Of a stretch of 64,000 nt of DNA, positions 3,109 through 40,081 are shown in pieces (position 1 is the stretch's first letter; each line of letters opens with the position of its first letter). The stretch comes from Steroidobacteraceae bacterium (lineage in GTDB: Bacteria; Pseudomonadota; Gammaproteobacteria; Steroidobacterales; Steroidobacteraceae), in contig DAOQXO010000001.1 in assembly GCA_035342635.1 (NCBI GenBank), forward strand, positions 18,751 to 82,750, given 5' to 3'. The notes beneath the pieces are model-generated. The model worked only from the letters and a program-made list of their open reading frames with translations. It made no database searches and was not told the DNA's origin. A program made the position numbers and the translations under genes.

Positions 3109-3127
3109 ACGGGAGCCAGGAGTTTCA

Positions 3128-4159
3128 ATGAAAGCCATCCGCTTCATCCGGCGCGGGCGCCCACCCGAGGTCGTCGACGTCAGGACGCCGACGCCGGCGG
3201 CCGGCCAGATCCTCGTGAAGATCGCCGGCGCCGGCGTGTGTCATTCCGATCTCCACATCCTCGACGAGGATCTCGGCCTCGAGGGGCCGTTCATCCTCGG
3301 CCACGAGAACTCGGGCCACGTCGCTGCGCTGGGCGAGGGTGTCCAGGGCTGGAAGGAAGGCGATCCGGTCCTCGTCTACGGTCCGTGGGGATGCGGCCGT
3401 TGCCACACCTGCCAGACCTCGGCAGAGAACTACTGCGAGAACCACGCGAGCATCGGCACGATGGGCGGCGGGCTCGGTGCCGATGGCGGCATGGCGGAGT
3501 ACATGCTCGTGCCTTCGCCGCGGCTGCTCGTGCCGCTCGGCAAGCTCGATCCGGTCGACGCAGCTCCCCTCGCGGATGCCGCGCTGACGCCTTATCACGC
3601 GATCAAGGCCGCGCTACCGTTGTTGACGCCCGAGGCCACGGTACTGGTGATCGGCATCGGAGGGCTCGGTCACATGGCGGTGCAGATACTGAAGGCGATG
3701 ACGCCGGCGCGGCTGATCGCCGGCGATATCGACGACAGCAAACTCGCGCATGCCCGCGAGCTCGGTGTCGAGCATGTCGTCAATACTCGCGACGGCGATG
3801 CCGCGGCGGAGGCGATCACGCAGCTCGCCGGACCGCGCGGCGTGACCGTCGCGCTGGACATCGTCGGCGCGCAGCCCACCGTCGATCTTGCAGTCCGCGT
3901 CGTCGGTCGCAACAGCCGCCTGAGCGTGGTGGGCCTTGCGGGCGGCGCCGTGCACTACGTGGCCAACAGTCCGCCCTACGGCTGCGAAGTCAGCATTCCG
4001 TACTGGGGTTCGCGCACCGAATTGATGGAGGTCGTCGCGCTGGCCGCCGCCGGTCGCATCCGCGCCGAAGTCGAGCGCTTCCCGCTCGAGCAGGCGGTAG
4101 AGGTGTACCAGCGCCTGCGCGAGGGCCGGATCCGCGGACGCGCGGTGCTGCAGCCCTGA
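3128..4159 (+). CDS. Zn-dependent NAD(P)-alcohol dehydrogenase (MDR superfamily)
   Basis: AGGAG lies 7 nt upstream of ATG 3128. Motifs seen: GVCHSDLH catalytic Zn site, GHENSGHV, structural Zn cluster [15 protein letters not shown], and GIGGLGH Rossmann motif. Confidence 0.9.
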
Positions 4160-6021
4160 GCGAACTGCTCGCGCGCGCGACGCGCATCCTCCGGGACGTC
4201 TTCGGCTATCCGGCCTTCCGCCCCGACCAGGCGGAGATCATCACGCACGTCGCCGCCGGCGGGGACGCTCTCGTGCTGATGCCGACCGGCGGCGGCAAGT
4301 CGCTGTGCTACCAGGTGCCCGCGCTGCTGCGCGAAGGCGTGGGCGTCGTCGTCTCGCCGCTGATCGCGCTGATGCAGGACCAGGTTGCGGCCTTGAAGGA
4401 GGCGGGCGTGCGCGCCGAGTTCCTGAACTCGACGCTCGACTGGCAGCAGGCGCAGGAGATCGAGTGCCGCGCGCGCGCCGGCGAACTGGACCTGCTGTAC
4501 CTCGCGCCGGAGCGCCTGCTGACGGAGCGCGGCCTCGCGCTGCTCGATCGCCTCACGATCGCGCTGTTCGCGATCGACGAGGCCCATTGCGTCTCGCAAT
4601 GGGGGCATGATTTCCGCCAGGAGTACCTGCAGCTCGCGGTGCTCGCCGATCGCTATCCGTCCGTGCCGCGCATCGCATTGACCGCGACGGCCGACGAGGC
4701 GACGCGCCGCGAGATGATCGAGCGCCTGCGCCTGCAGGGTGCGCGCTCATTCGTGCAGAGCTTCGACCGGCCCAACATCCGCTATCGCATCGCCGGCAAG
4801 GATTCCCCGCGGCGCCAGTTGCTGCGCTTCATCCTCGATGAGCACGCCGGACAGTGCGGCATCGTCTATTGCCTGTCACGCAAATCGGTGGAGGAGACAG
4901 CGCAGATGCTGGTCGACAACGGCGTCGACGCACTCGCCTATCACGCCGGCTTCAGCGCAGCCGAGCGGGAAGTCCGGCAGACGCGCTTCATCGAAGAGGA
5001 CGGCGTCGTCATCGTCGCGACGATCGCCTTCGGCATGGGCATCGACAAACCGGACGTGCGTTTCGTCGCACACGTCGATCTGCCGAAGAGCCTCGAGGGC
5101 TACTACCAGGAAACCGGCCGCGCGGGCCGCGACGGCGCGAGCGCTGAGGCGTGGATGGTCTATGGCCTCGCGGACGTCGTGCAGCAACGCCGCCTCATCG
5201 ATCAGTCCGAGGCGGGTGAGGCGCACCGGCGGGTCGCCCATGCAAAGCTCGACGCGATGCTCGGCCTCTGCGAAACGGTGCGCTGTCGCAGGCAGTACCT
5301 GCTCGAGTACTTCGGCGAAGCGAGCCGGCCGTGCGGCAACTGCGACAACTGCCTCGAGCCGCCGGCGCAGTTCGACGGCACCGAGGCCGCGCAGAAGCTG
5401 CTCTCGTGCATCTACCGCTGCGAGCAGGCGAGCGGCTTCGCGTTCGGCGCGCAGCACATCATCGATGTCCTGCGGGGCGAGCGGACCGACAAGGTGCTCG
5501 CGCACGGGCACGAGCGGATCAGCACGTTCGGCATCGGCGCGGATCGGGACCCGACGCAATGGCGCGCGGTGCTGCGGCAACTGCTGACGATGCGGCTGGT
5601 GACGGTCGATCACGATCACTGGAACGTGCTGCGCCTCACCGACACGAGCCGCGAGGTGCTTGCGGGTGCACGCCGGCTGACCCTGCGTCAGGACGCGCCG
5701 CGCCAGGGCGCGCGCAAGGGCGAAGGACGGCGCCGGCGCAAAGGCAGCGCGGCGCCGCCGGGCGCGCCGACGCCGCCGGCGAGCGGCCCGGCTTCGCCGC
5801 TGGAGGAAACCGTATTCCAGGCGCTGCGCGCATGGCGGCACGACGTGGCACGCGCGCACGGCGTGCCGGCCTATACCGTGCTGCACGATGCGAGCCTGCG
5901 CGAGATTGCCCGCCGCCGCCCGGAGTCCGCCGAGTCGCTGGCGGGGATCTCGGGCATCGGCGCGATCAAGCTCGCGCGCTATGGGGAGGCGATCATCGAG
6001 GTCGTCCGAAGCCGGCAGTAG
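4156..6021 (+). CDS. recQ: ATP-dependent DNA helicase RecQ (start codon uncertain)
   Basis: In-frame part of ORF 3238..6021 starting near [25 protein letters not shown]. Motifs seen: [13 protein letters not shown] (motif I), [17 protein letters not shown] (DEAH), Zn-binding [19 protein letters not shown], and a C-terminal HRDC domain ([26 protein letters not shown]). No in-frame ATG/GTG/TTG lies between the ADH stop and motif I, so the 5' boundary at CTG 4156 is a guess. Confidence 0.88.
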
Positions 6022-6055
6022 TATTGGTGACCTCTGAGGCCAGGGACAGGCTGCC

Positions 6056-7165
6056 ATGAAGAAGCGCTACAGGATCCTCGGTACGCTCGCGATCGTGCTC
6101 GTCGTGGCGCTCGCGGGCGGCGCTTTCATGTTGAGCCGCAACGCCCCCTGTCCTGCGGCACCACCATCACCTACGACTTCGGAAACGATGAAGGCGGTGG
6201 TGTCGGCCTGCTACGGGCCGCCCGCGTTCTTGCGCGTTGCGCTCGTCGACAGGCCGACTCCCGCCGACGACCGGATTCTGGTGAAGGTGCACGCGGCCGC
6301 CGTCAATCCGCTCGACTGGCATTACATGCGGGGCGAACCGTACATCATGCGCATGGACACGGGTCTCGGCAGACCCGCCGAGTCGAGGCTGGGGGTCGAT
6401 TTCGCCGGCACGGTCGAAGCCGTAGGCAGCAAGATCACGCGATTCAAGCCGGGCGATGAAGTATTCGGCGGCCGCACCGGCGCGTTCGCCGAGTACGTCG
6501 TCGTATCCGAGCGCAGCGCCGTAGCGGCGAAGCCGGCCGGCACCGGTTTCGAGCAGGTTGCCGCGCTGCCGATCGCGGCGATCACGGCACTGCAGGCGCT
6601 GCGCGACAAAGGCGAGCTCCGAGCAGGCGAAAAAGTCCTGATCAACGGCGCATCGGGCGGCGTCGGCACTTTCGCCGTACAGCTCGCCAAACACTTCGGC
6701 GCCGAAGTGACCGGCGTGTGCAGCACACGCAATGTCGATCTGGTGCGCTCGATCGGCGCCGATCACGTCATCGACTACACGCGCGAAGATTTCACGCGTG
6801 GCGAGCAACGCTACGATGTCGTCATCGACAATGTCGGCAATCACTCGCTGCTCGCCGTGCGGCGCGTCCTTGCACCCGATGGCCGCTATGTGATCGTCGG
6901 CGGTCCAAGCGAAGGCAAATGGCTCGGTGTCATGATGACTCCCCTCAAGGCATACCTGCTGGCGCCGTTCGTGAAGCAGAAAGTGAGCTTCATGCTCGCC
7001 CGGCTCAACGCCGCGGACCTCGCACTGCTCGCCGACCTGGCCGAGGCCGGCAAGCTCACGCCGGTGATCGACCGGCGCTACAGCCTGGACGAGGTGCCCG
7101 AGGCGATCGAGTACCTCGAGACGGGGCGCGCTCGCGGCAAGGTGATCATCGACATCAGAAAATGA
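6056..7165 (+). CDS. Zinc-type/quinone oxidoreductase-like MDR dehydrogenase with an N-terminal membrane anchor or signal
   Basis: 369-aa ORF. The N-terminus MKKRYRILGTLAIVLVVALAGGAFML is hydrophobic. It is followed by a typical MDR core (MKAVV..., VKVHAAAVNPLDWH, INGASGGVGTFAVQLAK, GRARGKVII). Confidence 0.8.
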   Translation: MKKRYRILGTLAIVLVVALAGGAFMLSRNAPCPAAPPSPTTSETMKAVVSACYGPPAFLRVALVDRPTPADDRILVKVHAAAVNPLDWHYMRGEPYIMRMDTGLGRPAESRLGVDFAGTVEAVGSKITRFKPGDEVFGGRTGAFAEYVVVSERSAVAAKPAGTGFEQVAALPIAAITALQALRDKGELRAGEKVLINGASGGVGTFAVQLAKHFGAEVTGVCSTRNVDLVRSIGADHVIDYTREDFTRGEQRYDVVIDNVGNHSLLAVRRVLAPDGRYVIVGGPSEGKWLGVMMTPLKAYLLAPFVKQKVSFMLARLNAADLALLADLAEAGKLTPVIDRRYSLDEVPEAIEYLETGRARGKVIIDIRK

Positions 7166-7240
7166 ACCACAGCGCCGGCTTGGGCCCGGCGTAGAGCAGG
7201 TGTATCGCGTGCAGCACGGCGAACCCCCGGAACGGCGGCT

Positions 7241-8917
7241 TCACCGGCCGGGCCGCGGCAGCTCGCTCGCGGTCACGAAGCGCGGCGCGATGTCGATCGG
7301 CACGGCACCCAGCCGATCCAGCACGCGCTGCACTTCGGGTCGGATCGTGACTTCGCGCTCGAGCAGCGCCTTGGCGCCGGCGTAATCGCCGTTCGCCTGC
7401 AGCGTCATGATGTCGCGAGTGAGGCTGGTGACCGCCCGCTTCGTCCTCTGCAGGTCGAGGCCGAAGCGGCCGTCGGCAGCGACGCGGATCGCGCCGTGGT
7501 CGAGCAGGTGGTTGACCTGCAGCGCCATGCCCTTCGCATGCGACTCGTTCAGGCCGAAGCGCAGCGTGCGAAACGAGGAGGCAAGGAAGGTCAGGTACAT
7601 GCTGCGTTCCTGGCGCTTGTCGATCACGCCTTTGTCCATCAGTTGCTGCAGCGCCCAGAGGCCCGAGATGTCGGCCTTGGCTTCTTCGAGCGTGCCGTTC
7701 AGCTCCTTCAGCTCCTGCCGCACCGTCGTCGCGCGACCCGCGACCGTGATCGTCTGCGGCCCGAGCCCGTGCATCAGCTCGTGCATCAGGATGTGCGTGA
7801 AGAACGGCTCGAACGCGACGAGTTCTGCGTCTTGCGCATCGAGCGCGATCGCGGCGATGGGCTGCAGCACCTTGTCGAACTTGGCCTGCTGAAAATTGCG
7901 CAGCATCACGCGCTTCGATCCCTTTTCGGCGACCACTCGCTCATCGTTCGGCAGGTTGAAGGCGGCGGTCTGCACGCCATGGTTGCCGTCGCCGGCGGCG
8001 AAGACGACGTTCACCACCCGGATCGGCGCGAGCGCGCCAAGCTGGGCGCTGCGGAAGCGGGGATCGATCGGCAGCCGGTTCTCCAGCCACTGCAGTTCCT
8101 TGCCGAAGCGCTCGAGCTGCGCGCTCTGCGCTGCGTCGACCACCGTGATGAAGGCCTCGAAGGCAGCCTTGTAGTTGAACCACTCGTCCTCGTAGACCTC
8201 GTAGGGGCCGATGGTGGGTTCGATCGAGGCATCGAGCTCCATCCACGCGACATCGCTCGCGTAGTAGTCGTTCGACAGGAACGCCGCGGCGCGTGTCTCG
8301 AGGAAGCGCCGCAGTGTCGGTTGCTTCGTCAGCGCCGCCGCCTCGCGCAGCAGGCGCGCAAGTTCACCGAGTTCACTCTGGTATTCGATCGAATAGGGCA
8401 CGGCGGCCAGCTCGCCTCCGGGCATGCGGCGGATCGTCGTGAAGAATCCGGTGGCCGCGGTGCGTTCGGTTTGCGGCAGCGAGTCGATCCACGCGGCGAT
8501 CTCCGCGCGCGTGGCGTCGGGCGGATAGTAGTTGCCCCCGTCGGGCTTGGGCCCCGCACCCGGGATGAACGGCCGGTTGTGATCGAGCTCCGACCATGGG
8601 CCCTTGTTCAGCACGAAATAGGCGAGCCGCGCGCGCCCGAGCGGCGTTTCGTCGCCGACGAGCGTCAAAAGCTGCGCCGTTGTTGCGGGCGAGCGCTGGC
8701 GAAGGAACAAGGCGTCGATCGCTCGCGCGGCTTCGACCAGGCAGGCGAGCGCGGCGCGCTCGTTTTCCGGCAGCGTCGCGAGATCGACAGTGATATCGAC
8801 CGGCGCGAAGCGCGCGGCCATGGTTTCGAGCTGCACGGTGTCGGGTGTCGGATCAGCCGCCGCCGCGACGGTCGCGCATGCCCAGAGGGCTATGGTCACC
8901 GGAATGATGGGTTTCAT
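7241..8917 (-). CDS. Secreted Zn-metallopeptidase, DPP III (M49)-like family
   Basis: Signal peptide MKPIIPVTIALWACATVAAAA. Metal-binding motifs HILMHELMHGLG and LEEAKADISGL resemble the HExxxH/EExxAE pair of the M49-related family. The 558-aa size fits bacterial members. Confidence 0.65.
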   Translation of the reverse strand: MKPIIPVTIALWACATVAAAADPTPDTVQLETMAARFAPVDITVDLATLPENERAALACLVEAARAIDALFLRQRSPATTAQLLTLVGDETPLGRARLAYFVLNKGPWSELDHNRPFIPGAGPKPDGGNYYPPDATRAEIAAWIDSLPQTERTAATGFFTTIRRMPGGELAAVPYSIEYQSELGELARLLREAAALTKQPTLRRFLETRAAAFLSNDYYASDVAWMELDASIEPTIGPYEVYEDEWFNYKAAFEAFITVVDAAQSAQLERFGKELQWLENRLPIDPRFRSAQLGALAPIRVVNVVFAAGDGNHGVQTAAFNLPNDERVVAEKGSKRVMLRNFQQAKFDKVLQPIAAIALDAQDAELVAFEPFFTHILMHELMHGLGPQTITVAGRATTVRQELKELNGTLEEAKADISGLWALQQLMDKGVIDKRQERSMYLTFLASSFRTLRFGLNESHAKGMALQVNHLLDHGAIRVAADGRFGLDLQRTKRAVTSLTRDIMTLQANGDYAGAKALLEREVTIRPEVQRVLDRLGAVPIDIAPRFVTASELPRPGR

Positions 8918-8980
8918 TGCTCAATTGTAGAACCTCCCGCGGCCACCTGCGGCAACGCCCGCCTCCGTGAAGTGCGGGCC

Positions 8981-9002
8981 GCGCCCGGCGCCTGCCGGGC
9001 GC
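8981..9002 (-). terminator. Perfect 8-bp GC hairpin (gcgcccgg-cgcctg-ccgggcgc); possible intrinsic terminator or RNA-stabilising stem between the small ORF/RND operon and the peptidase gene
   Basis: Inverted repeat read directly: 8981..8988 pairs with 8995..9002 around a 6-nt loop. There is no U-tract, so function is uncertain. Confidence 0.25.
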
Positions 9003-9104
9003 GGGTCCGCATGCCGCTTCGACGGTAGCGCAGCCACAAGGGGCCCGGCTCGCTGGGACGGCGGGTGCCATCGGCCGTTCGCCGGGCTTGCTCCTGGGCG
9101 GCCA

Positions 9105-9302
9105 CTACTTCGCCTCGCTGGCGCTCTGGTAGGGGCCGATCGGCAGATGGCGCGGCACGGTGCCGTGACGCCGGCTGTCGCTGCGGGCCTCCGTCCGCCA
9201 CGGCGCAGACAGGTCCTGCGTACGGGCCATGGCGTCGAACCAGGTGCACCAGCCCCGCGATATCCCTGCGAGGAGCGGTGACGACCAGATGTTGATGTAC
9301 AT
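9105..9302 (-). CDS. Hypothetical small protein (65 aa)
   Basis: ATG at 9302 is preceded by GGAGAG with 4-nt spacing. Codon third positions are overwhelmingly G/C, as in flanking genes. I recognise no family (MYINIWSSPLLAGISRGWCTWFDAMARTQ...). Confidence 0.45.
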   Translation of the reverse strand: MYINIWSSPLLAGISRGWCTWFDAMARTQDLSAPWRTEARSDSRRHGTVPRHLPIGPYQSASEAK

Positions 9303-9306
9303 TGTT

Positions 9307-9339
9307 CTCTCCTTGTCCGAATGGACAGTTTGTGGAGAG
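9307..9339 (-). promoter_or_regulatory. Nested hairpin that pairs the Shine-Dalgarno sequence of the small ORF with an upstream anti-SD
   Basis: Minus-strand RNA reads CUCUCC-ACAAAC-UGUCC-AUUC-GGACA-A-GGAGAG-AACA-AUG. CUCUCC (9334..9339) pairs with the SD GGAGAG (9307..9312). An inner 5-bp stem UGUCC/GGACA has an AUUC loop. Confidence 0.4.
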
Positions 9340-9400
9340 GATCATGGCCGACGGGTGGGCCCTTTGAGTTCCGAAATTCTCGCGCTCGCGTAAGTTGCGC

Positions 9401-12400
9401 TTAAGGCTGGCCGGCGCCCCTCGCCTGCAACAGGCTGAAGTACAGGATCGGAATCACCGCGAGCGTGAGCACGGTCGAGACGAGGATGCCGAAGATAAGC
9501 GACACCGCGAGGCCGTTGAAGATCGGATCGTCGAGGATGAACACCGCGCCGATCATCGCCGCGAGCGCGGTCAGCACGATCGGGCGGGCGCGGACGGCAC
9601 CGGCGCGGATCACGGCCTCGGCCGGTGCGCGGCCCTCGGCCAGCTCCTGGTTGATGAAGTCGACCAGCAGGATCGAGTTGCGCACGATGATGCCGGCGAG
9701 CGCGATCATGCCGATCATCGAGGTGGCCGTGAACTGCGCGCCGAGCAGTGCGTGACCCGGCATCACGCCGATGATCGTCAGCGGGATCGGCGCCATGATC
9801 ACGAGCGGCACGAGGTAGGAAGCGAAGTGCGCGACGACCAGCAGGTAGATCAGCAGCAGGCCCACCGAGTAGGCGAGCCCCATGTCGCGGAAAGTTTCAT
9901 AAGTGATCTGCCACTCGCCGTCCCACTTCACGGCGGCGGCGAGCGTATCGGCGGGCTGGCGAATGAAGTATTGCGCCACTTCCTCGCCGGCGTCGCCGGC
10001 GCGCAGCTGGCCGACGAGGTCGAACATGCCGTAGAGCGGACTGTCGAGCCGCCCGGCCATGTCGCCGGTGACATGAACGACCGGCAGCAGGTCCTTGTGG
10101 TGGATCGCGCCATCCCACTGCGCCTCGCGCACGGTGACGATCTCCGATAGCGGCACCATCGTGCCCCCGGCCGCGGGCACCTCGAGCGCGAGCAGGTCGT
10201 CGAGCGTTGCACGCCCGGCGACCGGCAGTTCGAGGCGCACCGGGATCGGATAGCGCTCCTGTCCGGCGCGCACATAGGTCGCGTCATAGCCGTCGAGTGC
10301 GACCTGCAGCGTGCGCACCGCCGCCTCCTGGCTCACGCCGAGCAGGGCCGCGCGCGAGCGGTCGATCGCGATGACCTCGCGCCGCGCCGGTGCCTCGACC
10401 GTGTCGTCGACATCGACGATATCCGTCGTCGCCTCGAACAGGCCGCGCAGCCGCTGCGCAAGGGCGCGCCGTGCCTCGGGCGTCGGGCCGTACACCTCGG
10501 CGACGATGGGCGCGAGTACCGGCGGACCGGGCGGGACTTCGACGACCTGCACGCTCGCCGCGCCGTGGCGGCGGCCGATCGCAGCGAGCGCCGGCCGCAC
10601 GGCGAGCGCGATCTCGTGGCTGTGGCGCTTGCGTTCGTGCTGGTCAGCGAGGTTGACCTGGATGTCGCCGTAGTGGGGCGCATTGCGCAGGTCGTACTGG
10701 CGCACGAGTCCGTTGAAGTTGATCGGTGCCGAGGTGCCGGCGTAGATCTGGTAGTGCGTGACCTCCGGCGTCTTGACGAGTTCCGCGGCGAGCTCGTCGA
10801 GCAGCATCGTGGTGCGTTCGAGTGCGGTGCCCTCGGGCATGTTCACGACGACCTGGAACTCCGACTTGTTGTCGAAGGGCAGCATCTTCATCACGACGAG
10901 CGTGAACGCCGCGAGCGATACCGCGAGCAGGATCGCCGCCGCAGTCGCACCGTAGAGGCGGTGGCGCCGACGACGGGCGTCGGCGCCGTGGAGGAAGGGG
11001 CCCAGCAGGCGTTCGAAAAAGCGCTGCAGTCGCGCGTCGATGGCGAGCGACGCGCGCGTATCGCCACCGTCCTGCGCCCGGATCCGCTGCAGCAGCCGTC
11101 GTGACAGCCACGGGGTGAAGACGAGCGCGACCGCAAGCGAGATCACCATGCCCATGCTCGCGTTGATCGGGATCGGGCTCATGTAGGGGCCCATCAGGCC
11201 ACTGACGAAGGCCATCGGCAGCAGCGCGGCGATCACCGTGAAGGTCGCGAGGATCGTCGGCCCGCCGACTTCGTCGACCGCATGCGCGATCAGCGCGGGC
11301 AGGTCACGGCCGCCCTCGCCGGGAGGCGCGTGCTGCAGGTGACGATGGATGTTCTCCACCACCACGATCGCATCGTCGACCAGGATGCCGATCGAGAAGA
11401 TCAGCGCGAACAGCGAGACGCGGTTCAGCGTGAAGCCCCAAGCCCAGGAAGCGAACAGGGTCGCGGCGAGCGTGACGACCACGGCGCTGCCGACGACGAA
11501 GGCTTCGCGCCGGCCGACGGCGAGGATGACCAGCACGATCACCGCGACGGTCGCGAACAGCAGCTTCTGTATCAGCTTGACCGCCTTGTCATTCGCGGTC
11601 TCGCCGTAGTTGCGGGTGATCGTCGTCTCGACGCCCGTCGGCAGGTACACACCGCGCAGTGCATCGACCCGCTCGATCAGCTGGTCGGCGACGTCGATCG
11701 CATTGCTGCCGGGCTGCTTGGTGACCGCGATCGTCACGGCCGGGGCCTTGACCGGCGCGCCGGCGCCGCCGAACCAGACCGCCGAGCGCGGCTGTGCGGG
11801 CCCGCGCGTCACCGTCGCGACATCCTGCAGATAGACCGGGTGGCCCGCGTGCATTCCGACGACCAGGTTCGCGACATCGTCGCGATTGGCGAGGAACTCT
11901 CCGGCCTGCACCGGAATCGCACGGTTGCCTGCGACGAGCTTGCCCGCGTGCGCGACGATGTTGGCCGCCTCCAGCGAGCGCATCAGCGCATCGACGCCGA
12001 GGCCGTGGCCGGCGAGCCGCTGGGCGTCGAGGCGCACGAGCACCGCGTCGTCGGGCCCGCCGATCGTGTAGACGTCGCGCGTGCCCGGCACGCGCTGCAG
12101 CTCGGCTTCGATCGAGTGCGCGATGTGGCGCAGGTCGTAGCCCGCGCGGTCCTCGTCGGCGGTCCACAGCGCGAGCGTCAGGATCGGCACATCGTCGATG
12201 CCCTTCGGGCGGATCAGTGGCTCCTGCACGCCGAGCCCGGCGGGGCGCCAGTCGCGGTTGGAATAGACCGCGTTGTAGAGGCGCACGACCGCTTCGTTCC
12301 GAGTCTCACCGACTTCGAACTGCACGGTCAGCACCGCCATGCCCGGCTGCGAGACCGAATAGAGATGGTCGACGCCGTCGATTTCGCCGAGTATCTGCTC

Positions 12401-33513: not shown

Positions 33514-34023
33514 CTAGAACGCCTTCGCGATTATCGCCACGGTGAGCGTGGCGTGGATGCCGGCGAACAGCCACGGCACCAGCAGCTCGACCCGGGTGAT
33601 CTGCAGGTAATCGCGGCGCGAGCGGTCGGCTTCGAGCGCGACCCACTCGGCTGCATAGGGTGCGAGCGGCAATCCCTTCTCCATCGCGAGGATCACCCTG
33701 AACTTGCCGGCGTTCAGCTGCCGGTAGGACAGCACCATCATCCACCACGCCGCGCACATCAGGATCGCGGCGCATGCGGGCGCGAGCACCAGTGCGCGCG
33801 TCGTGATCAGGCCCGCCCGCAGCGCGAACACCAGCGCGCCGACCACCGCGGTGTTCATGCCGACGAAGAAAGAGTTGGCGAGCATGCGCCGGTTGCTGAC
33901 ACGGTCGGCCATCTCCACGTACATCTGGTACTGGCGCAGCGAGTGGTAGCGGTAGTCGTCGCCGTACCTGTCCTCGGGCGTCGAGAACAGGGCCTTGTTG
34001 ATGTTCTCTTCGGTACCGGGCAT
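33514..34023 (-). CDS. Small 3-TM membrane protein, third gene of the STAND/SLOG operon (SLATT-like or RipA-like; family uncertain)
   Basis: ATG 34023 lies 11 nt after the stop of the upstream gene (TAGGAACCACGGCCATG). The 169-aa product has an amphipathic helix YQMYVEMADRVSNRRMLANSFF, two adjacent TM helices, SYRQLNAGKFRVILAMEKGLP, and a third C-terminal TM. The long N-terminal extension of ORF 33514..34872 is rejected. Confidence 0.75.
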   Translation of the reverse strand: MPGTEENINKALFSTPEDRYGDDYRYHSLRQYQMYVEMADRVSNRRMLANSFFVGMNTAVVGALVFALRAGLITTRALVLAPACAAILMCAAWWMMVLSYRQLNAGKFRVILAMEKGLPLAPYAAEWVALEADRSRRDYLQITRVELLVPWLFAGIHATLTVAIIAKAF

Positions 34024-34034
34024 GGCCGTGGTTC

Positions 34035-35738
34035 CTAGTGTGAAGGCAGGTGGCGCAGTTTGCGATCGCGGTTCAGCAGCACCCAGGTCGCGTGTTCGGA
34101 CAGGGCCGCCCGCGCGAGTGAATAAAGCACGGCGCGCCGCCGCTCGTCCCCAGCTGCGCCCTGCAGGTGCGTGCGCGCCTCGTCGAACAGGCGGTACATG
34201 TAGCCATACTGGCGGGCCAGTTCCTTGGCGGCGGTCTTCTGCAGCCAGGCTTCGAGCAGACCGGCCACGAGCGGCAGCAGGCCCATCGTGACGACGAGCG
34301 GCGTTTTCACGTAGGGAACGTGTAGCACCGGGATGAAGCACAGCACCGCGGCCGCGGTGAGGCCCAGCACGAGCGTGACCGCGCCAATGCGTTCGGTGAG
34401 CGCGATCATGCGCCGGCGCCGTTCGCCGGCGCGCCAGAAATAGGCGAGCTGGCCGCCACCGCGGTCCTTGGTCAGGTCGAGCGAACCGACCCAATGCTCG
34501 ATCACATGCTCGATGCCGCCGCTCACGCCGGTGCGCCCCGCATCGTGCATCTCGAAGTCGACCGCGCGCATCGCGGTGCGGATCCAGTCGAGTTCGGTGT
34601 CCTGGCGGCGCAGGAAACTCTCGTCGCCGGTGTGCAGCCTGCCCTCGTCGCGCACGCCGGCGATACGCAGGTAGAACTGCACGCGCAGCCCCTCGCACAG
34701 CGCACGATACTCGAGATGGTCGCGGTGCCAGCCACGACCCTCGGCAAAACGGCTGAGCGCGATGGTCGTGAGCGCGGCTCCGAAGAACAGATAGATGAGT
34801 CCCCACATCGCCGGGATCTTCGAATACAGCACGAACGCGCAACCCATCACCGCGCCGATCGCATAGGTCCACGCGGTGATGCGCATCAGGCGCCGCCGAT
34901 GCTGGGTCGCAAGTCCGTCCGCGACCGCGATCAGGCGCGCACAGCGCGCGATCGCGGGCGGCGCGCCGACGAACGGTACGCTGCCAGGTCCGGCCAGATC
35001 GCCGGCGGCGGCGGCGGCGGCGTTGAACTCCTCGGTGCGATCGAGCACGTGCCGGTTGAGGTCTGGCATCGCATCGTGCAGGGCGGAGCGTCCGCCGGCG
35101 AACTCGTGGACGTAGCCTGCCGCGAGCGGATGGTGGCCGTTCGTCGGCTTGCCGTTAGGTCGCGCGCGCGACACGAGGATGTGGAACACGAGCGAATTGT
35201 CTACCTCGCCGAGCGCGAGATCGCGCAGGTCCTCGACCGCGGGCCGCACGCCGCCGCGCGACGCGAGCCGGTAATCCACCACCGCCGCCGTGCCGCCGGG
35301 GCTCGCCGCCGGCTTGCCGTCCCACAGCGCAAGCAGGATGTAGCAGTAGCGCGCGAGGAAGTCGCCGGCACTGGCGTACAGCGTGTCGCGGTCGTAGCTG
35401 GCTTCCCCGGATGCGAGATCGAGTACGCGCGAGGCGGCGCGCAACTTGTCGAAGCGCCCGCGCGCCGCATCGTCGGTCATCTGCGAGCGGTAGTCCTCGA
35501 GCGGCAGCGGCTGCAGGAACACGAGCTCGAGCCCGAGCGCGAGGGCCTCCTCGGCGACCAGCAGGTCGGCGCCCTCGGCAAGCTGCGAGGCGACCACGAT
35601 CGGCGTGTGCGGCCAGCGCTCGCGCAGGCCCTGCAGGAACTCGTGCACGCGTTCGCGGATCGCCGGCAGCTCGCTGTCGACGAGATCGCGGTGGCCGGTG
35701 ACACCGATGACGAGGGGAATGGCTGCGGGCAGTTCCAT
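34035..35738 (-). CDS. SLOG-like (DprA/LOG-type Rossmann) domain fused to two tandem SLATT/DUF4231-like 2-TM modules
   Basis: ATG 35738 (MELPAAIPLVIGVTGHRDL) lies 22 nt after the stop of the NTPase gene. N-terminal motifs are VIGVTGHRD, SQLAEGADLLVAEEA (cf. DprA SGxAxGID) and SPGGTAAVV (cf. LOG PGGxGT). TM pairs fall at residues ~287-330 and ~450-497, each preceded by an RRR(R) helix and followed by a W...E.L...Y helix. Confidence 0.7.
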   Translation of the reverse strand: MELPAAIPLVIGVTGHRDLVDSELPAIRERVHEFLQGLRERWPHTPIVVASQLAEGADLLVAEEALALGLELVFLQPLPLEDYRSQMTDDAARGRFDKLRAASRVLDLASGEASYDRDTLYASAGDFLARYCYILLALWDGKPAASPGGTAAVVDYRLASRGGVRPAVEDLRDLALGEVDNSLVFHILVSRARPNGKPTNGHHPLAAGYVHEFAGGRSALHDAMPDLNRHVLDRTEEFNAAAAAAGDLAGPGSVPFVGAPPAIARCARLIAVADGLATQHRRRLMRITAWTYAIGAVMGCAFVLYSKIPAMWGLIYLFFGAALTTIALSRFAEGRGWHRDHLEYRALCEGLRVQFYLRIAGVRDEGRLHTGDESFLRRQDTELDWIRTAMRAVDFEMHDAGRTGVSGGIEHVIEHWVGSLDLTKDRGGGQLAYFWRAGERRRRMIALTERIGAVTLVLGLTAAAVLCFIPVLHVPYVKTPLVVTMGLLPLVAGLLEAWLQKTAAKELARQYGYMYRLFDEARTHLQGAAGDERRRAVLYSLARAALSEHATWVLLNRDRKLRHLPSH

Positions 35739-35760
35739 TTGCGGGGCGGTTCTCCCTGTG

Positions 35761-38700
35761 TCAGCGGGGCAGGCGGGCAAGCCGTTGCTCGAGATCACGC
35801 GTGTAGTATCGCTCGCCGCCAAAGCGTTTGCGCACGATCGGCAGTGCTTCGGTCAGCAGCCTGCGGGCTTCGGGATATTTCTTCTCCGCGGCGTAGGTGG
35901 TGGCGAGCACGGCGTCCTGCAGCGCGTAGCGCCAGGCCTCGTCGGGCATCTCGGCAAGCGGGTACTGTTGTTCGAGCAGCGTTCTTGCCCGGGAGAGCAG
36001 TTCCCCGGCCTGCGGGGCGCGGTCCGTCTTTGCGTACACATCGGCGAGGTTGGTCAGCACCTGGTCCCGCATCCAGTGGTTTCGCTTCTCGGCGATACCC
36101 AGTGCCTCGTCGAGCCTCGCCTCCGCCCCTGCGTACCTGCGCCGCGCGAGGTCGATCATCGCGAGGCTGTTGAGTGGCAGGATCAGGTCGTCGTGGTCGG
36201 GGGGCTTGGTGCGCCGGTGAGTGTCGAGCGCCCTGGCCAGATAGCCTTCGGCCTCATCGAGCCTGCCTTCGATCAGCAGGCCACGGCCGATGTTGTTGGC
36301 CACACTCGCGCTCTCAGGGTGGTCTTTCCCCGCCCATTCGTCGGAGATGGCCAGGCATTCCTGCCACGCCGTCACCGCCTCCTCATACTGCCCGGTCTGG
36401 AAACTGATCGCGCCGAGATGATTCAGACTGTCGGCGACCTTCCAGTGTCCGCGACCGAGCGAGTTCCTCCTGATCGCGAGGCTGTCGCGAGTGAGCTGCT
36501 CCGCCTCGCCGTACCGCGCCTCGTAATAGAGCGTGATCGCGAGTCCCTGCATCGTCTCGGCGACCTCCAGGCTCTTCGCACCGTGCAGCCGCGTGTCGAT
36601 CGCGAGCGCCTCGCGATAGGCGGTCTCGGCATCGGCATCCGATCCCAGCTGCGACAGCGTATCGCCGAGGCCAACGAGTATGCGCGATACCAGTGCGTCG
36701 CCCTCGGGCGCAAGCTGCCGTGCACTGGCCAGGGCAATCCGGTATTGCTTCTCGGCCTCGACGTAAGCGCCGTCGAGGTACGTTGCGGCGGCCAGCGCCC
36801 GCCGCGTTTCGGTCGTGGCCCGTGTGTCGGCGCCCGCGGACCGTTCGCGCAATACCAGCGCATCGCGCAACAGTGCCTGCGCCGGGGCCGGCAGGCCGAG
36901 GCCCGTGTACGCCCGGCCCATCGCGGTCATCAGGCTCGAACGGATGGCGGGTCGATCCTGCAACTGGCGTTGCACGTCGGCGGCACCGCGGTCGAGCATC
37001 TCGCGCACCGTGAACTCGTTCGCGCGGGCCTCGGTCGGGTCAGCGAGCGTGAACAGGGAGACCATGAAATCCATGGTCTGCTCGGTCGTCGACGCCTCGG
37101 TCTCTGCCCGCTCCCGTTGCGAGGTGGCGACGAGAGCGGCGGTGGTCGCTGCCGTGGCGAGCACGGCCAGGCCGGCAACCGCGCTGTTGCGGGCGAGCCG
37201 TGCGCGGCGTGCCCGCGCCTGCGAAGCCTCGATCAGCGCGACTTCGGAGGGCGTGAGTTCCATGCCGGCAGCGGCGACACTCGCAGCCTCCTCGAGCGAT
37301 CGGCCCGCCGCCAGCAACAGATCGGCCCTGCGGCTTTCCTGCTCCCAGCGCTCCGCGTTCGCCGCCAGGCGTGCCCGGGCCCGCAACAGGTCGCGATTCT
37401 CGCCGAGCCAGTCGCGCACGCGCGGCCAATGGCGAAGCAGGGCCTCGTGCGCGATCGACACCACGGGTCGTGCGTCGTTGCCGAGTTCGGACACGCACAG
37501 GCGCGCCTCGATCAATGCATGCACGAGGTCCCACTGCGGACCGGCGGGGAACTCATCGAGCGCGGCGCTGCGGCGGCTGAATGCGCCCGCACCGGTGGTG
37601 GTTGCGCTGATGAGCCTGCGCAGGACCGATGACAGGCTTTCGCGGGTTGCCTCGGGCAGCGCCATGAACACCGCCTCGGCGCGCCGCGCGAGCGCGCCCT
37701 CGACGCCCCCGATGTCGTGGTAGGCGGCAAATGTCAGCGTGCCGTCGGACGCGCGTCGCAGGTAGAGCTCTTCGAGCGCGAACTCCAGCAGCGGCAGGGC
37801 CTCCGGGCTGCGTGCCGCTTCATCGCGCAGCACTTCGTCGAGACCCTCGCCGCCATCGACGCGCGTCTCGAAGCGCAGGCCGGCCGCCGCGGCAGGCAGC
37901 CGGATGATCTGGCCGATCTCCGCCGGCGTGGGTGCACGCAAGTCATATTGTCCGTCGCCCGCCTTCAGCGCGACGAGGGTCCCGTGCTCGACGCAGCGCG
38001 GATAGAAATCGCTGCGCAATGTCGCGATCGTCCAGACCTTGCGCGACGCCGTCACCTGCGCGAGCCGCGCAAAAAAACGCTCGCGCTCCGCGTGGCCGAT
38101 TCGCTCGTCGGCGAACACTTCCTCGAACTGGTCGATCACGAGCACGGTGCGTCGGTCCGGTGGCGCGGCCGCGGCCGCTTCGCCCAGGCTCTCTTCGAGC
38201 AGTGCGCAAAGGTCGTCCCTGCGGTCCCGCGGTCGCAACTCGACACGCCGCCATTCGGCAATACCCTCGATGACACCCGGTTGCGTGAGTACCGGCAGCA
38301 GGCCGGAGCGCACGACTGACGACTTGCCGCTGCCGCTTGCCCCGATCACGAGCAGGAATGGCCGGTCCGCGGCATCCTGCCGGCGCAGCGCCGCGATCAT
38401 CTCGCCGATCGCCGCGGTCCGGCCGAAGAACACCGGCGCGTGTTCGAAGTCGAAGGCCTCGAGGCCGCGAAACGGTGATTCGTGACGCCAGGTCGCGACA
38501 TCAGTGCGTGCGGCGCCGACCGCCTCCGGGAACGTGCGCGCGATCAGCTTGCGCAGGTGGACATCGATCAGTTCCTCGAACTGCGCGACGTCGGCGAACG
38601 GATGGAACGCCGCGCGCAGCGTGCCGTCCGTCTCGTCGTGGAACCACCGGCGCACGAAGGCATCGAGGGCCTGCTTCTGCCGCAGTCGCTCGAGCGACTG

Positions 38701-39102
38701 CGCATCATCGTCGGCATCGAGCAGCGGAGGAGCGGTCTTTCGATACACGAGCAGCGCGGGCCGTCCGTGCCGACGGTAACCCGACAGCGCGTCCTCGAAC
38801 TCGAACTCGGTTCCCGATTCGTAGTGCTTGCCGTCCGGCTTGCGAAACGATGCCGGCAGGCGCGTGCCGAGGCGCGACCACAGCACGCAGATGGCGGCGT
38901 GCGCATCGGCCGGGTGCGGCAACTGGTCCTGGAAGGAGGCGGAGGCGACGAGCGGTTCGTGTTCCCAGAAGACCGGCTCGATCCGAACGCGCCCGTTGAA
39001 CTCGCTGCCCAGGCGGTCGATGACGCGCCGGGCGATCAGCCGCTCTTCGGCGACATCCCCCGGCGACGACAGGAATATCCGGAACGTGTCCAACGCGCGC
39101 AC
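35761..39102 (-). CDS. STAND-type P-loop NTPase with DUF4062/TIR-like N-terminal domain, one TM helix and C-terminal TPR repeats
   Basis: 1113 aa, GTG start (boundary uncertain). N-terminus is RIFLSSPGDVAEER...ESGTEFEFEDAL...PALLVYRK. Next come FRGLEAFDFEHAPVFFGR, Walker A GASGSGKS (nt 38320..38343) and Walker B-like LVIDQFEEVF. A hydrophobic helix AVAGLAVLATAATTAALVATS lies at ~37120..37185. About 400 aa of TPR_12-like repeats follow (e.g. YREALAIDTRLHGAKSLEVAETMQGLAITLYYEARYGEAEQL). Confidence 0.8.
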   Translation of the reverse strand: MRALDTFRIFLSSPGDVAEERLIARRVIDRLGSEFNGRVRIEPVFWEHEPLVASASFQDQLPHPADAHAAICVLWSRLGTRLPASFRKPDGKHYESGTEFEFEDALSGYRRHGRPALLVYRKTAPPLLDADDDAQSLERLRQKQALDAFVRRWFHDETDGTLRAAFHPFADVAQFEELIDVHLRKLIARTFPEAVGAARTDVATWRHESPFRGLEAFDFEHAPVFFGRTAAIGEMIAALRRQDAADRPFLLVIGASGSGKSSVVRSGLLPVLTQPGVIEGIAEWRRVELRPRDRRDDLCALLEESLGEAAAAAPPDRRTVLVIDQFEEVFADERIGHAERERFFARLAQVTASRKVWTIATLRSDFYPRCVEHGTLVALKAGDGQYDLRAPTPAEIGQIIRLPAAAAGLRFETRVDGGEGLDEVLRDEAARSPEALPLLEFALEELYLRRASDGTLTFAAYHDIGGVEGALARRAEAVFMALPEATRESLSSVLRRLISATTTGAGAFSRRSAALDEFPAGPQWDLVHALIEARLCVSELGNDARPVVSIAHEALLRHWPRVRDWLGENRDLLRARARLAANAERWEQESRRADLLLAAGRSLEEAASVAAAGMELTPSEVALIEASQARARRARLARNSAVAGLAVLATAATTAALVATSQRERAETEASTTEQTMDFMVSLFTLADPTEARANEFTVREMLDRGAADVQRQLQDRPAIRSSLMTAMGRAYTGLGLPAPAQALLRDALVLRERSAGADTRATTETRRALAAATYLDGAYVEAEKQYRIALASARQLAPEGDALVSRILVGLGDTLSQLGSDADAETAYREALAIDTRLHGAKSLEVAETMQGLAITLYYEARYGEAEQLTRDSLAIRRNSLGRGHWKVADSLNHLGAISFQTGQYEEAVTAWQECLAISDEWAGKDHPESASVANNIGRGLLIEGRLDEAEGYLARALDTHRRTKPPDHDDLILPLNSLAMIDLARRRYAGAEARLDEALGIAEKRNHWMRDQVLTNLADVYAKTDRAPQAGELLSRARTLLEQQYPLAEMPDEAWRYALQDAVLATTYAAEKKYPEARRLLTEALPIVRKRFGGERYYTRDLEQRLARLPR

Positions 39103-39163: not shown

Positions 39164-40081
39164 TCAACGAGCCGCGGGCTGGCCAGTGCGCCGCCGGATC
39201 ATGAGCAGGGCGGCAAGTCCGGCGAGCATCAGCACCAGGGTGCCAGGTTCCGGGACGGGCGCAGGCGGCGGCGGTGTCGTGCCTCCCACGAGCACGCCAT
39301 CGCGGAAGCGGAAGAAGTAATCGGCATCCTCGACCAGCGCGTCAGTGCTGCGAAACAGATCGGCGCCGCCGGCGGTGATGAACTGGTTGCCGATCAGCGA
39401 TGGGAAGGACGAGTCGAGGGCGTTCGAGCCGTAGCGCATGTCGACGTCGAAGTCGCCGTTGCCGAGGAAGTAGATGTACGCCTGGAAGTCGTAGGTCGTG
39501 TCGGGATCGTCCGCGAGCGCGATGTTGGTCCAGAAGAAACGTATGCCGGCCACCGCGGCGTCCGCGTCAGGTGCGGCGTCACTGAGACCCATGCCGAAAC
39601 CGAAGGTATACGAGGTGCTGCCATCGCCGTTCGACGAGAAAGTGCCGTCGCCAAGGTCGTAGGCATTCGAGGCGAGATCGGCCGCAAACACGCCGAACAG
39701 CGGATCCGCGGCGCTGTAGCCGGTGGCGGAGTCGAAGAGCGCGAAGCTGCCGTCTTCGAACATCCGCAGCGAGTCGTAGCTGGTGCCGCCGATATTGAGG
39801 GCGTGCGAACTGTAGGGGCCGCCGAGCAGCGTATCGTCGCTGTCCCGGTACTCGGTCGTGAAGAGGAGCGACCCGTCGGCGGGTGCCGAGGTCAGGTCGA
39901 CGCCGTCGTCGAAGGAGCTGTCGAACCCGACCCCGGGCCGGCCAGGCCAGCCCGCGCCGGACTGCGGAAACGACTCGGGTCCGAAGTCGACCTGGACCCG
40001 TCGGGCCTCTGCGGTCCCGATTGGCAGCAGGGCCACGGCAACGGCGGCGATCAGGGCCCTGGACACCCGGTTGGTGGACAT
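39164..40081 (-). CDS. PEP-CTERM sorting-domain secreted protein
   Basis: Signal peptide MSTNRVSRALIAAVAVALLPIGTAEA. The C-terminus PVPEPGTLVLMLAGLAALLMIRRRTG is a canonical PEP-CTERM anchor (PEP motif, TM, Arg cluster). Confidence 0.85.
   Translation of the reverse strand: MSTNRVSRALIAAVAVALLPIGTAEARRVQVDFGPESFPQSGAGWPGRPGVGFDSSFDDGVDLTSAPADGSLLFTTEYRDSDDTLLGGPYSSHALNIGGTSYDSLRMFEDGSFALFDSATGYSAADPLFGVFAADLASNAYDLGDGTFSSNGDGSTSYTFGFGMGLSDAAPDADAAVAGIRFFWTNIALADDPDTTYDFQAYIYFLGNGDFDVDMRYGSNALDSSFPSLIGNQFITAGGADLFRSTDALVEDADYFFRFRDGVLVGGTTPPPPAPVPEPGTLVLMLAGLAALLMIRRRTGQPAAR

Follow-up and report, generated by a model that had tools for sequence, protein, structure and literature searches.

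The window analysed here is a 64,000-nucleotide (nt) stretch of contig DAOQXO010000001.1 (positions 18,751 to 82,750 of the forward strand) from genome assembly GCA_035342635.1 of a Steroidobacteraceae bacterium. Between positions 33514 and 39102 of the window lie three genes on the minus strand, called A, B, and C below, all of which are predicted to encode proteins with transmembrane (TM) segments. The trio is probably an uncharacterised chromosomal relative of Thoeris anti-phage signalling with extracytoplasmic sensing of the trigger. The three genes are arranged as follows.

35761-39102, minus strand: gene A, 1113 amino acids (aa), GTG start; predicted single-pass membrane STAND protein of the layout DUF4062-nSTAND1-TM-TPR
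34035-35738, minus strand: gene B, 567 aa, ATG start; predicted SLOG domain followed by two SLATT-type hairpins of two TM helices each
33514-34023, minus strand: gene C, 169 aa, ATG start; protein of the RipA/8xMP family with three predicted TM segments

That A, B, and C are real genes and not chance open reading frames (ORFs) is shown by their sequence matches: 318 bits for A against Pfam nSTAND1, 130 bits for C against Pfam 8xMP, and 672 relatives for B. The stop codon of A and the ATG of B are 22 nt apart, with a GGGAGA within this gap before the ATG, and the stop codon of B and the ATG of C are 11 nt apart. Judged from the common strand and these two gaps, the three genes are co-transcribed as an operon. 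The same spacing had been given in a first-pass annotation of this DNA and agrees with the ORF coordinates; one coordinate in it, a stop of B at 35035, was in error, as gene B ends at 34035. All of the motifs quoted in that annotation could be located in the proteins, and the lysine of the Walker A motif in A is K260. Gene A has an alternative start, a TTG at 39093 located three codons downstream of the GTG, from which the protein would begin MDTFRIF and have the same N-terminus as its relatives. The GC content of the locus is ~0.69, like that of its surroundings. A simple scan of the locus for promoters and terminators yielded no informative consensus.

Protein A can be divided into four parts.

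38488-39102, minus strand: residues 1-205, head assigned through homologues to the DUF4062 family, a TIR-like NADase family
37324-38475, minus strand: residues 210-593, nSTAND1 NTPase with Walker A GASGSGKS (254-261) and Walker B LVIDQFEE (321-328)
37126-37182, minus strand: residues 641-659, single predicted TM helix with the N-terminal flank ARARRARLARNS (+5), oriented N-in/C-out by hydropathy
35764-36885, minus strand: residues ~740-1113, TPR array of the kinesin-light-chain (KLC) type, predicted to be periplasmic

The first-pass annotation had proposed that A is built from a head of the DUF4062/TIR-like kind, an NTPase of the nSTAND type, a single hydrophobic helix, and TPRs, and the present analysis supports this composition, for the head through its homologues. 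In the head, IFLSSPGD occupies residues 9-16, ESGTEFEFEDAL residues 95-106, and LLVYRK residues 117-122; in the NTPase, FRGLEAFDFEHAPVFFGR occupies residues 211-228, GASGSGKS residues 254-261, and LVIDQFEEVF residues 321-330. The NTPase is the most readily recognised part, as A matches Pfam nSTAND1 (PF20703) with 318.4 bits against a cut-off of 27.1 (E 1.3e-94) and both Walker motifs are present. The C-terminus matches Pfam TPR_12 (E 7e-41) and TPR_10 (E 1e-31), and the TPRs match KLC TPRs in a sequence search of the PDB.

What is the head of A? Evidence for its assignment comes from its homologues. The Pfam DUF4062 profile (PF13271) is matched by 68 of 71 homologues of the head that are 40-60% identical to it (best E 1.9e-6), and some database relatives of A are annotated as DUF4062. 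The orthologue of A at locus L028 (sampled loci carry L numbers) matches the same profile with E 2e-4 and 21.9 bits, which is below the cut-off of 24.7. The head of A would thus belong to the DUF4062 family through these homologues, its own score being below the curated cut-off. W46, E47, and E101 of the head are invariant across 71 sequences. An AlphaFold2 (AF2) model of the head has a mean confidence (predicted local distance difference test, pLDDT) of 93 and a five-strand alpha/beta layout; a sequence search of the PDB with a profile of the head gave nothing useful. DUF4062 is a TIR-like NADase: it hydrolyses NAD+ and has a catalytic Glu as well as a W-E motif (bioRxiv 10.64898/2026.05.01.722283; 10.64898/2026.06.25.731849). 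E101 is probably the catalytic Glu of the A head and a candidate counterpart of KpSwz E97. A search of A, B, and C with the TIR profiles of Pfam and PADLOC gave no match, and there is no canonical ThsB TIR in the operon. Close relatives of the head are also found in other settings (P0187, P0191, P0149, and P0162 among the matches): some are fused to CheY-like receiver domains, and others, encoded on long contigs, stand alone as proteins of 160-250 aa.

The hydrophobic segment at residues 641-659 (hydropathy 1.98) is the sole such segment in A. Proteins encoded beside B in other genomes, referred to as partner proteins, share this feature. All eight partner proteins that were examined, which cover the three head types described below, have exactly one TM segment in the same place, with a Kyte-Doolittle hydropathy of 1.6-2.9 and a flank that is basic on the N-terminal side (+4 to +6). 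The head and the NTPase of A are expected to be cytoplasmic because they use NAD+ and NTP, respectively. With these domains in the cytoplasm and one TM helix to cross the membrane, the TPRs would be extracytoplasmic. The first-pass annotation had likened A to phage sensors such as Avs proteins; sensing of phage proteins in the cytosol by the TPRs, in the manner of Avs proteins, was rejected, because a conserved TM helix between the NTPase and the TPRs would put the TPRs outside the cytoplasm.

Protein B consists of a predicted soluble domain and two membrane modules.

35004-35738, minus strand: residues 1-245, predicted cytoplasmic SLOG domain, by AF2, Foldseek, and Pfam matches of homologues
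34659-34958, minus strand: residues 261-360, first SLATT/DUF4231-like module with predicted TM helices at 287-305 and 310-328
34068-34454, minus strand: residues 429-557, second SLATT_1-like module with predicted TM helices at ~452-474 and 477-495

The AF2 model of B (pLDDT 85, predicted template modelling score 0.85; pLDDT 93-97 over residues 10-110) contains an N-terminal Rossmannoid domain. The best Foldseek matches of B in the PDB are YpsA (2nx2; E 3.4e-4, probability 1.0, TMt 0.65), DprA (3uqz), ShosA (8zva), and the LOG-like TM1055 (1rcu). SLOG-type Pfam families are also matched by homologues of B, namely YAcAr by 6 and DprA by 3 of 20. As predicted by the model, the N-terminus of B has the SLOG fold. 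Three motifs are found at residues 13-18 (VTGHRD), 51-58 (SQLAEGAD), and 146-154 (SPGGTAAVV). H16-R17-D18, G56, W139-D140-G141, and T150 are invariant among the homologues and D58 nearly so. The HRD, EGAD, WDG, and GGT motifs follow the strands at residues 9-15, 47-51, and 134-139; in other words, they are placed at C-terminal strand ends, which are the usual ligand crevice of the SLOG fold.

Two hairpins, at residues 287-328 and 452-495, are fused to the SLOG domain, and by hydropathy and the helices of the AF2 model each of them comes after a long helix. Residues 274-356 are matched by Pfam DUF4231. SLATT_1 and DUF4231 are each matched by 15 of 20 homologues of B (E<=0.1, best 1e-5) and SLATT_3 by 8 of 20. 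B thus appears to be best described as a divergent SLATT relative. A SLOG domain with two SLATT/DUF4231-like modules of two TM helices is what the first-pass annotation had seen in B, and it is upheld by the fold match, the profiles of homologues, and hydropathy. A sequence search of the PDB with B gave nothing useful. Homologues of B of the Woeseiaceae type are longer (~840 aa; L004 10001-12511, L056 7012-9624) and have two SLOG-like domains in tandem at the N-terminus. In these proteins the series GVTGHRD...AEGAD...LALWDG...GGT occurs twice and is followed by two SLATT hairpins.

A recurring neighbour of B is the main evidence for a functional link between B and A. The 672 relatives of B (clusters at 50% identity, E<=1e-30) nearly all have the full-length architecture, and none among them has a functional name. 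When one genome was scanned per species, carriers of B numbered at least 564. The carriers are mostly Gammaproteobacteria, including Steroidobacteraceae, Rhodanobacter, Luteibacter, Luteimonas, Woeseiaceae, Thioalkalivibrio, and Wenzhouxiangellaceae. To describe the neighbourhood, the ORFs around B were clustered in 85 loci, 79 of which are distinct species-genome loci. A neighbour with the TM-proximal region and TPRs of A was found in ~64 of the 79 species-genome loci and in ~70 of all 85, usually adjacent to B and on the same strand. The TM-proximal region is the most conserved common part of these partner proteins, with 41-55% identity.

The head of the partner protein is exchanged among loci. 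It is TIR_2/ThsB_TIR in ~40 loci and DUF4062-nSTAND1 in 12 close and 8-9 distant loci, the distant ones being ~50% identical to A. In seven further loci the partner has nSTAND1 alone, and a separate SIR2-TIR gene is located immediately upstream wherever the contig reaches that far. Orthologues of A are upstream of B in L001-L015 and, at ~50% identity, in L019, L022, L028, L029, L049, L062, L071, and L078. On the tree of B, the partner type is largely clade-specific and has been swapped several times. The conserved core therefore appears to be a gene pair: a protein with a TIR-superfamily head, with or without STAND, followed by TM and TPRs, together with a SLOG-2xSLATT protein. The gene structure, the domain identities, the hydropathy topology, and the conserved linkage accompanied by head-swapping are the observed part of this analysis. 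A chance juxtaposition of the three genes was rejected, as the linkage is conserved across distant taxa. The first-pass annotation had called the genes functionally linked, and this gained support from the recurrence of the A-type/B pairing in many distant genomes and the exchange of the head with true TIR domains. Its proposed check on the co-occurrence of all three genes gave a divided answer: the A-B pair is widely conserved, but the full trio was found only in the Steroidobacteraceae-type clade and L014.

In distant lineages, the A-like or TIR-TPR gene and B are separated by a further gene, whose product has a signal-peptide-like N-terminus and matches no Pfam family. The positions of these genes within five loci are as follows.

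L028, 8407-9867: intervening gene for a predicted secreted protein
L019, 8310-9812: intervening gene for a predicted secreted protein
L004, 8343-9797: intervening gene for a predicted secreted protein
L062, 7600-9810: intervening gene for a predicted secreted protein
L078, 6147-8258: intervening gene for a predicted secreted protein

These proteins fall into two families (~480-585 aa and ~700-736 aa) and are candidate periplasmic co-sensors or ligands. A variant cassette (L094 3370-7955; also L023, L047, L048, and L050) consists of a SIR2-TIR gene, a gene for an nSTAND1-TM protein, and a homologue of B. The nSTAND1-TM protein of this cassette has an unannotated C-terminal region of ~600 aa and no TPR.

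Protein C is, by sequence, a member of the RipA/8xMP family. It matches Pfam 8xMP (PF24838) with E 4.9e-38 and 130.5 bits (cut-off 30) over 135 of 136 profile positions, and the same profile is matched by all 37 aligned homologues. NCBI names these homologues "RipA family octameric membrane protein". Hydropathy places TM segments at residues 52-70, 79-97, and 147-165. A sequence search of the PDB with C gave no match, and a search of the literature for "8xMP" found nothing relevant; the family name was taken from NCBI protein names. C had been regarded in the first-pass annotation as SLATT-like, with a core of a helix and two TM segments. This view did not hold. An alignment of the C family with the SLATT modules of B by hhalign gave probabilities of 0.2-2.7%, in a comparison of low power as the two modules of B miss each other too, and a SLATT_fungal match was seen in 1 of 37 homologues of C (E 0.12).

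Relatives of C are found beside TIR genes. Small genes of the ThsB type flank C-family genes in Aeromonas, in three related metagenomic genomes, and at L090 and L091. On a Polaromonas plasmid, a C-family gene has a TIR gene on one side and a PIN-domain gene on the other, and the gene just upstream of the TIR encodes a type I restriction R subunit. The TIRs beside C-family genes match PADLOC ThsB models, are 38-56% identical to TIRs listed with "3TM" Thoeris effectors, and are up to 59% identical to a TIR of type VII Thoeris, the cyclic ADP-ribose (cADPR) type. The C family is present on plasmids, and the contexts of its members are of the defence type (type I restriction R subunit, PIN, HEPN_AbiU2, patatin, VMAP). 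At L091, a TIR-coding sequence that was not called as a gene occupies positions 4569-4979, directly upstream of the 8xMP gene. At L090, the TIR sequence upstream of the 8xMP gene (3371-3484 and 4651-4938) is apparently split by the insertion of a DDE transposase.

How might the three proteins work together? The SLOG domain of ThsA, the effector of type I Thoeris, binds cADPR isomers. SLOG and SLATT were reportedly defined by Burroughs et al. in 2015 (NAR). An association between SLOG and SLATT was predicted by the Aravind group, according to the passages of PMC7159879 and PMC9503650 in which that work is cited, and the SLATT effector ThsH responds to cADPR (bioRxiv 10.64898/2025.12.03.692087). 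A Thoeris-type effector combines a signal-binding domain with a toxic module, and B has this layout in the form of SLOG and SLATT, as predicted from sequence and model. The reading preferred here is that the trio may be a Thoeris-like module for nucleotide signalling, encoded on the chromosome and centred on a transmembrane receptor, with a probability of roughly 0.5. We infer its signal chemistry, direction of information flow, trigger, and physiological outcome to be the following. A would reside in the inner membrane with the DUF4062 head and nSTAND1 in the cytoplasm and the TPR array in the periplasm. An envelope cue, which may be phage adsorption, injection damage, another envelope attack, or a ligand, would engage the TPRs. 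The STAND module would then exchange nucleotide and oligomerise, bringing the DUF4062 heads together. The heads would cleave NAD+, probably with E101 as the catalytic Glu, into ADP-ribose (ADPR) or an ADPR-derived product. Binding of this product to the SLOG domain of B would cause the two SLATT hairpins to oligomerise or open, and the membrane would be permeabilised or depolarised. C, as a putative ring-forming RipA/8xMP protein, would be a second signal-responsive membrane effector or a modulator of B.

The main support for the idea that a TIR-like head makes a signal and SLOG reads it comes from the partner proteins. A TIR-superfamily NAD-processing domain accompanies B, because all three partner types carry or adjoin one, and it appears to have stayed with B despite the repeated replacement of the head. 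Furthermore, the B and C families independently adjoin TIRs, which may be counted as notable for a relay of this kind. The single TM segment in 8 of 8 partner proteins and the signal-peptide proteins encoded beside B both suggest extracytoplasmic sensing.

Several findings weigh against this signalling model. The head of A does not match PF13271 at E<=1, and its Foldseek matches are weak and generic (TIR-STING, nucleoside 2-deoxyribosyltransferase (NDT), and flavodoxin folds, with template modelling scores (TM-scores) of 0.3-0.45). The topology of A was called from hydropathy only. Both SLATT assignments in B are below their cut-offs: residues 429-552 match Pfam SLATT_1 (PF18181) with E 0.005 and 17.3 bits against 26.3, and residues 265-353 match NCBIfam SLATT_1 (NF033634) with E 9e-7 and 28.9 bits against 41. 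There is no partner within 7 kb in ~9 of the B loci with adequate flanks, and C is downstream of B only in the Steroidobacteraceae-type clade and L014. The characterised DUF4062 proteins, Swarozyc and Evangelion, act by depleting NAD+, produce plain ADPR, and are not known to signal (bioRxiv 10.64898/2026.05.01.722283; 10.64898/2026.06.25.731849). In E. coli, no protection was seen with two TIR systems of the predicted "SLOG and 4TM" class (bioRxiv 10.64898/2025.12.03.692087). The genomic setting belongs here as well. The trio is vertically inherited and located outside any defence island. Its flanks encode TrkA/TrkH, a PEP-CTERM protein, a metallophosphatase, CBS, NfeD/Band_7, and DUF885, all of a housekeeping kind, and its GC content is unremarkable. 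No homologue of B was found in 72,556 plasmids and 50,697 phages.

These last points are also what would be expected of a physiological role, which we regard as unlikely on the whole. In this alternative the biochemistry is the same, and it serves a lineage-specific envelope-stress or ion-homeostasis pathway, with an NAD-derived messenger gating a SLOG-coupled channel and C tied to envelope or lipopolysaccharide homeostasis. Relatives align collinearly with the window over ~21 kb, with nucleotide identities of 78-87%, the trio being as diverged as its flanks, and the loci L004 and L005 are in housekeeping contexts too. Inheritance beside TrkA/TrkH, CBS, NfeD/Band_7, and the metallophosphatase, a B distribution that is clade-restricted and mostly gammaproteobacterial, and the lack of B copies in the plasmid and phage collections searched fit such a pathway. 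So do the periplasmic TPR topology predicted by hydropathy, the signal-peptide partner proteins, the genetic link of Francisella RipA to LpxA (PMC4322802), and the weak Foldseek match of B to TRPM2 through its SLOG domain. However, TIR, DUF4062, SIR2-TIR, STAND, and SLATT have so far all been characterised or predicted in conflict systems, of which rapid head-swapping is also typical. Furthermore, relatives of C are found in defence-type contexts, and one relative of B adjoins a caspase-like protease. A setting in a defence island, for which the first-pass annotation had proposed a check, is contradicted by the syntenic housekeeping flanks; no enrichment beside defence genes or on mobile elements was seen in the flanks, at L004 and L005, or, for B, in the plasmids and phages searched. 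A recently acquired island was likewise rejected, as the locus has diverged to the same degree as its flanks and has an unremarkable GC content.

Two other explanations change the relation between the proteins. A could be a self-contained abortive-infection protein of the Avs or Swarozyc kind that depletes NAD+, with B and C independent of it or accessory to it, needing no diffusible signal; they might, for instance, anchor or regulate A through contact within the membrane. The known DUF4062 systems are indeed single-gene NAD+ depleters (bioRxiv 10.64898/2026.05.01.722283; 10.64898/2026.06.25.731849), and one variant of the partner carries SIR2-TIR, the classic NAD-depleting combination. By hydropathy A, B, and C are all inner-membrane proteins, which makes contact feasible, and the conserved TM-proximal region (41-55% identity) could be the contact surface. 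This explanation is decidedly improbable, however, since it does not account for the SLOG domain that B retains with invariant residues at the canonical ligand crevice. It also leaves unexplained why a TIR-superfamily domain comes with B in all three partner types, including the NTPase-less TIR-TM-TPR proteins. The flow of information could also be reversed. Damage to the membrane or a nucleotide would then be sensed by B, with or without C, and A would act downstream as the executor. The order of the genes is in itself compatible with either direction, SLOG domains can be enzymes, as in the LOG family, and STAND proteins with effector heads are often terminal executors. Nevertheless, in all characterised cases SLATT modules act as effectors and STAND proteins with repeats as sensors, and the TPRs of A with the adjacent secreted proteins look like an input device, so that a reversed flow would be very surprising.

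The closest known systems to the preferred Thoeris-like reading are those of Thoeris itself. Type I Thoeris pairs the TIR protein ThsB with the SIR2-SLOG protein ThsA, and type III combines TIRs with a SLOG effector. In the scheme of Thoeris types, TIR with a SLOG effector corresponds to types I and III, and TIR with SLATT corresponds to type VII, in which cADPR is the signal (bioRxiv 10.64898/2025.12.03.692087). Like Thoeris, the trio would have a TIR-superfamily NAD-processing domain encoded beside a SLOG and/or SLATT effector, and ~40 related loci have a true TIR_2/ThsB_TIR partner. Unlike in Thoeris, the head of A is assigned to DUF4062 and is not a canonical TIR, and the same protein continues with a STAND NTPase, a TM helix, and predicted extracytoplasmic TPRs, whereas ThsB is small and soluble. 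SLOG and the two SLATT hairpins are predicted to be combined in one protein in the trio, which is furthermore vertically inherited outside defence islands, with B absent from the plasmids and phages searched. "SLOG and 4TM" and "3TM" are predicted Thoeris effector classes (Tables S1 and S2 of bioRxiv 10.64898/2025.12.03.692087). B resembles the former in its domain and its number of TM segments, and the TIR sequences associated with "4TM SLOG" in that preprint did not match the partner genes found here. C resembles the latter in having three TM segments and belonging to a TIR-adjacent family, a link that rests on TIR similarity (38-56% identity). Neither class has been described with a STAND or DUF4062 partner.

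Among DUF4062 proteins, Swarozyc and Evangelion (DUF4062/NIR) are comparable to A, for which an N-terminal DUF4062-family domain with the conserved Glu and W-E motif is predicted. They are soluble, single-gene NAD+ depleters triggered by a phage portal or replication intermediates, whereas A would span the membrane and is encoded with two candidate signal-responsive membrane proteins. The order predicted for A, of a DUF4062-family domain, a STAND NTPase, and repeats, is also seen in the eukaryotic TEP1, NWD1, and NPHP3. Avs/AVAST and bacterial NLR-like STAND sensors also have an effector head, a STAND NTPase, and a repeat sensor, but the NTPase of A is nSTAND1 and matches no PADLOC Avs model, its repeats would be placed outside the cytoplasm by the TM helix, and its partner effector genes are conserved. 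TRPM2 is a channel whose SLOG-like MHR1/2 binds ADPR and gates a membrane pore. B is likewise a predicted SLOG-fold nucleotide sensor fused to membrane helices and gives weak Foldseek matches to TRPM2, but the membrane parts are non-homologous (TM-scores ~0.1-0.2), making this an analogy only. Francisella tularensis RipA is linked to C via the NCBI family name and Pfam 8xMP, and it has been studied for intracellular growth and LpxA suppression and not for TIR signalling.

PADLOC matched A with PDC-S60 (at the N-terminus), TPR, and weak mad3/mad8 P-loop models, whereas B, C, and the intervening secreted proteins are not covered by any of its models. The statement in the first-pass annotation that no named defence system matches this composition passed the PADLOC check. 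The composition is less novel than that statement implied, as the "SLOG and 4TM" and "3TM" kinds are already listed as predicted Thoeris effectors. Pairing of a TIR-superfamily enzyme with SLOG or SLATT effectors is of a known kind. New in the trio would be the proposed DUF4062-nSTAND1 generator, a membrane-spanning receptor design with TPRs that appear to be extracytoplasmic, two predicted effector classes in one operon, and a stable, non-mobile chromosomal locus.

If the preferred reading is true, signalling of the TIR/Thoeris type extends to a DUF4062-STAND generator, DUF4062 being so far only known as an NAD+ depleter, and the trio is an example of a membrane-spanning receptor that senses its trigger extracytoplasmically. 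It would also supply a working hypothesis for the large uncharacterised B family. The RipA/8xMP family would be given a biochemical context, that of membrane rings responding to TIR signals, and this could be relevant to Francisella RipA. The B family can be tested in cultured carriers of the versions with a TIR partner or with no partner, which are found in Rhodanobacter, Luteibacter, and Luteimonas; no cultured carrier of the DUF4062 version was found. A broader and rather speculative extension is that A and its TIR-headed relatives are a large unrecognised class of bacterial transmembrane receptors with the logic of Toll-like receptors, in which an envelope cue is converted to an NAD-derived messenger for a SLOG-coupled membrane protein. 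Such receptors would combine a TPR ectodomain outside the cytoplasm, one TM helix, and a TIR or DUF4062-STAND head on the cytoplasmic side. They would be core and vertically inherited in many Gammaproteobacteria, not mobile, and their DUF4062 would be signal-generating and not just NAD+-depleting.

Some minor observations concern the surroundings of these genes. A co-oriented gene for a 305-aa protein with a signal peptide and a PEP-CTERM sorting tail is located in the window at 39164-40081 (minus strand), 61 nt upstream of A, and its position is kept in the close clade and L014. A comparison with the secreted proteins of other lineages, whose genes lie between B and the A-like gene, revealed no sequence similarity. 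The most divergent homologue of B that was sampled (P0111) is at L093 and has no TPR partner. It belongs to a same-strand run (2409-9746) that also encodes a Peptidase_C14 (caspase-like) protein, an LCAT-like lipase, and two unknown proteins. In Microcystis (L092, 5001-10044), the genes that come after one for an 8xMP/RipA homologue encode an FGE-sulfatase-receiver protein, a VMAP-C protein, and an AAA protein, an arrangement reminiscent of the vWA-MoxR-VMAP conflict systems described by Kaur et al. 2020.

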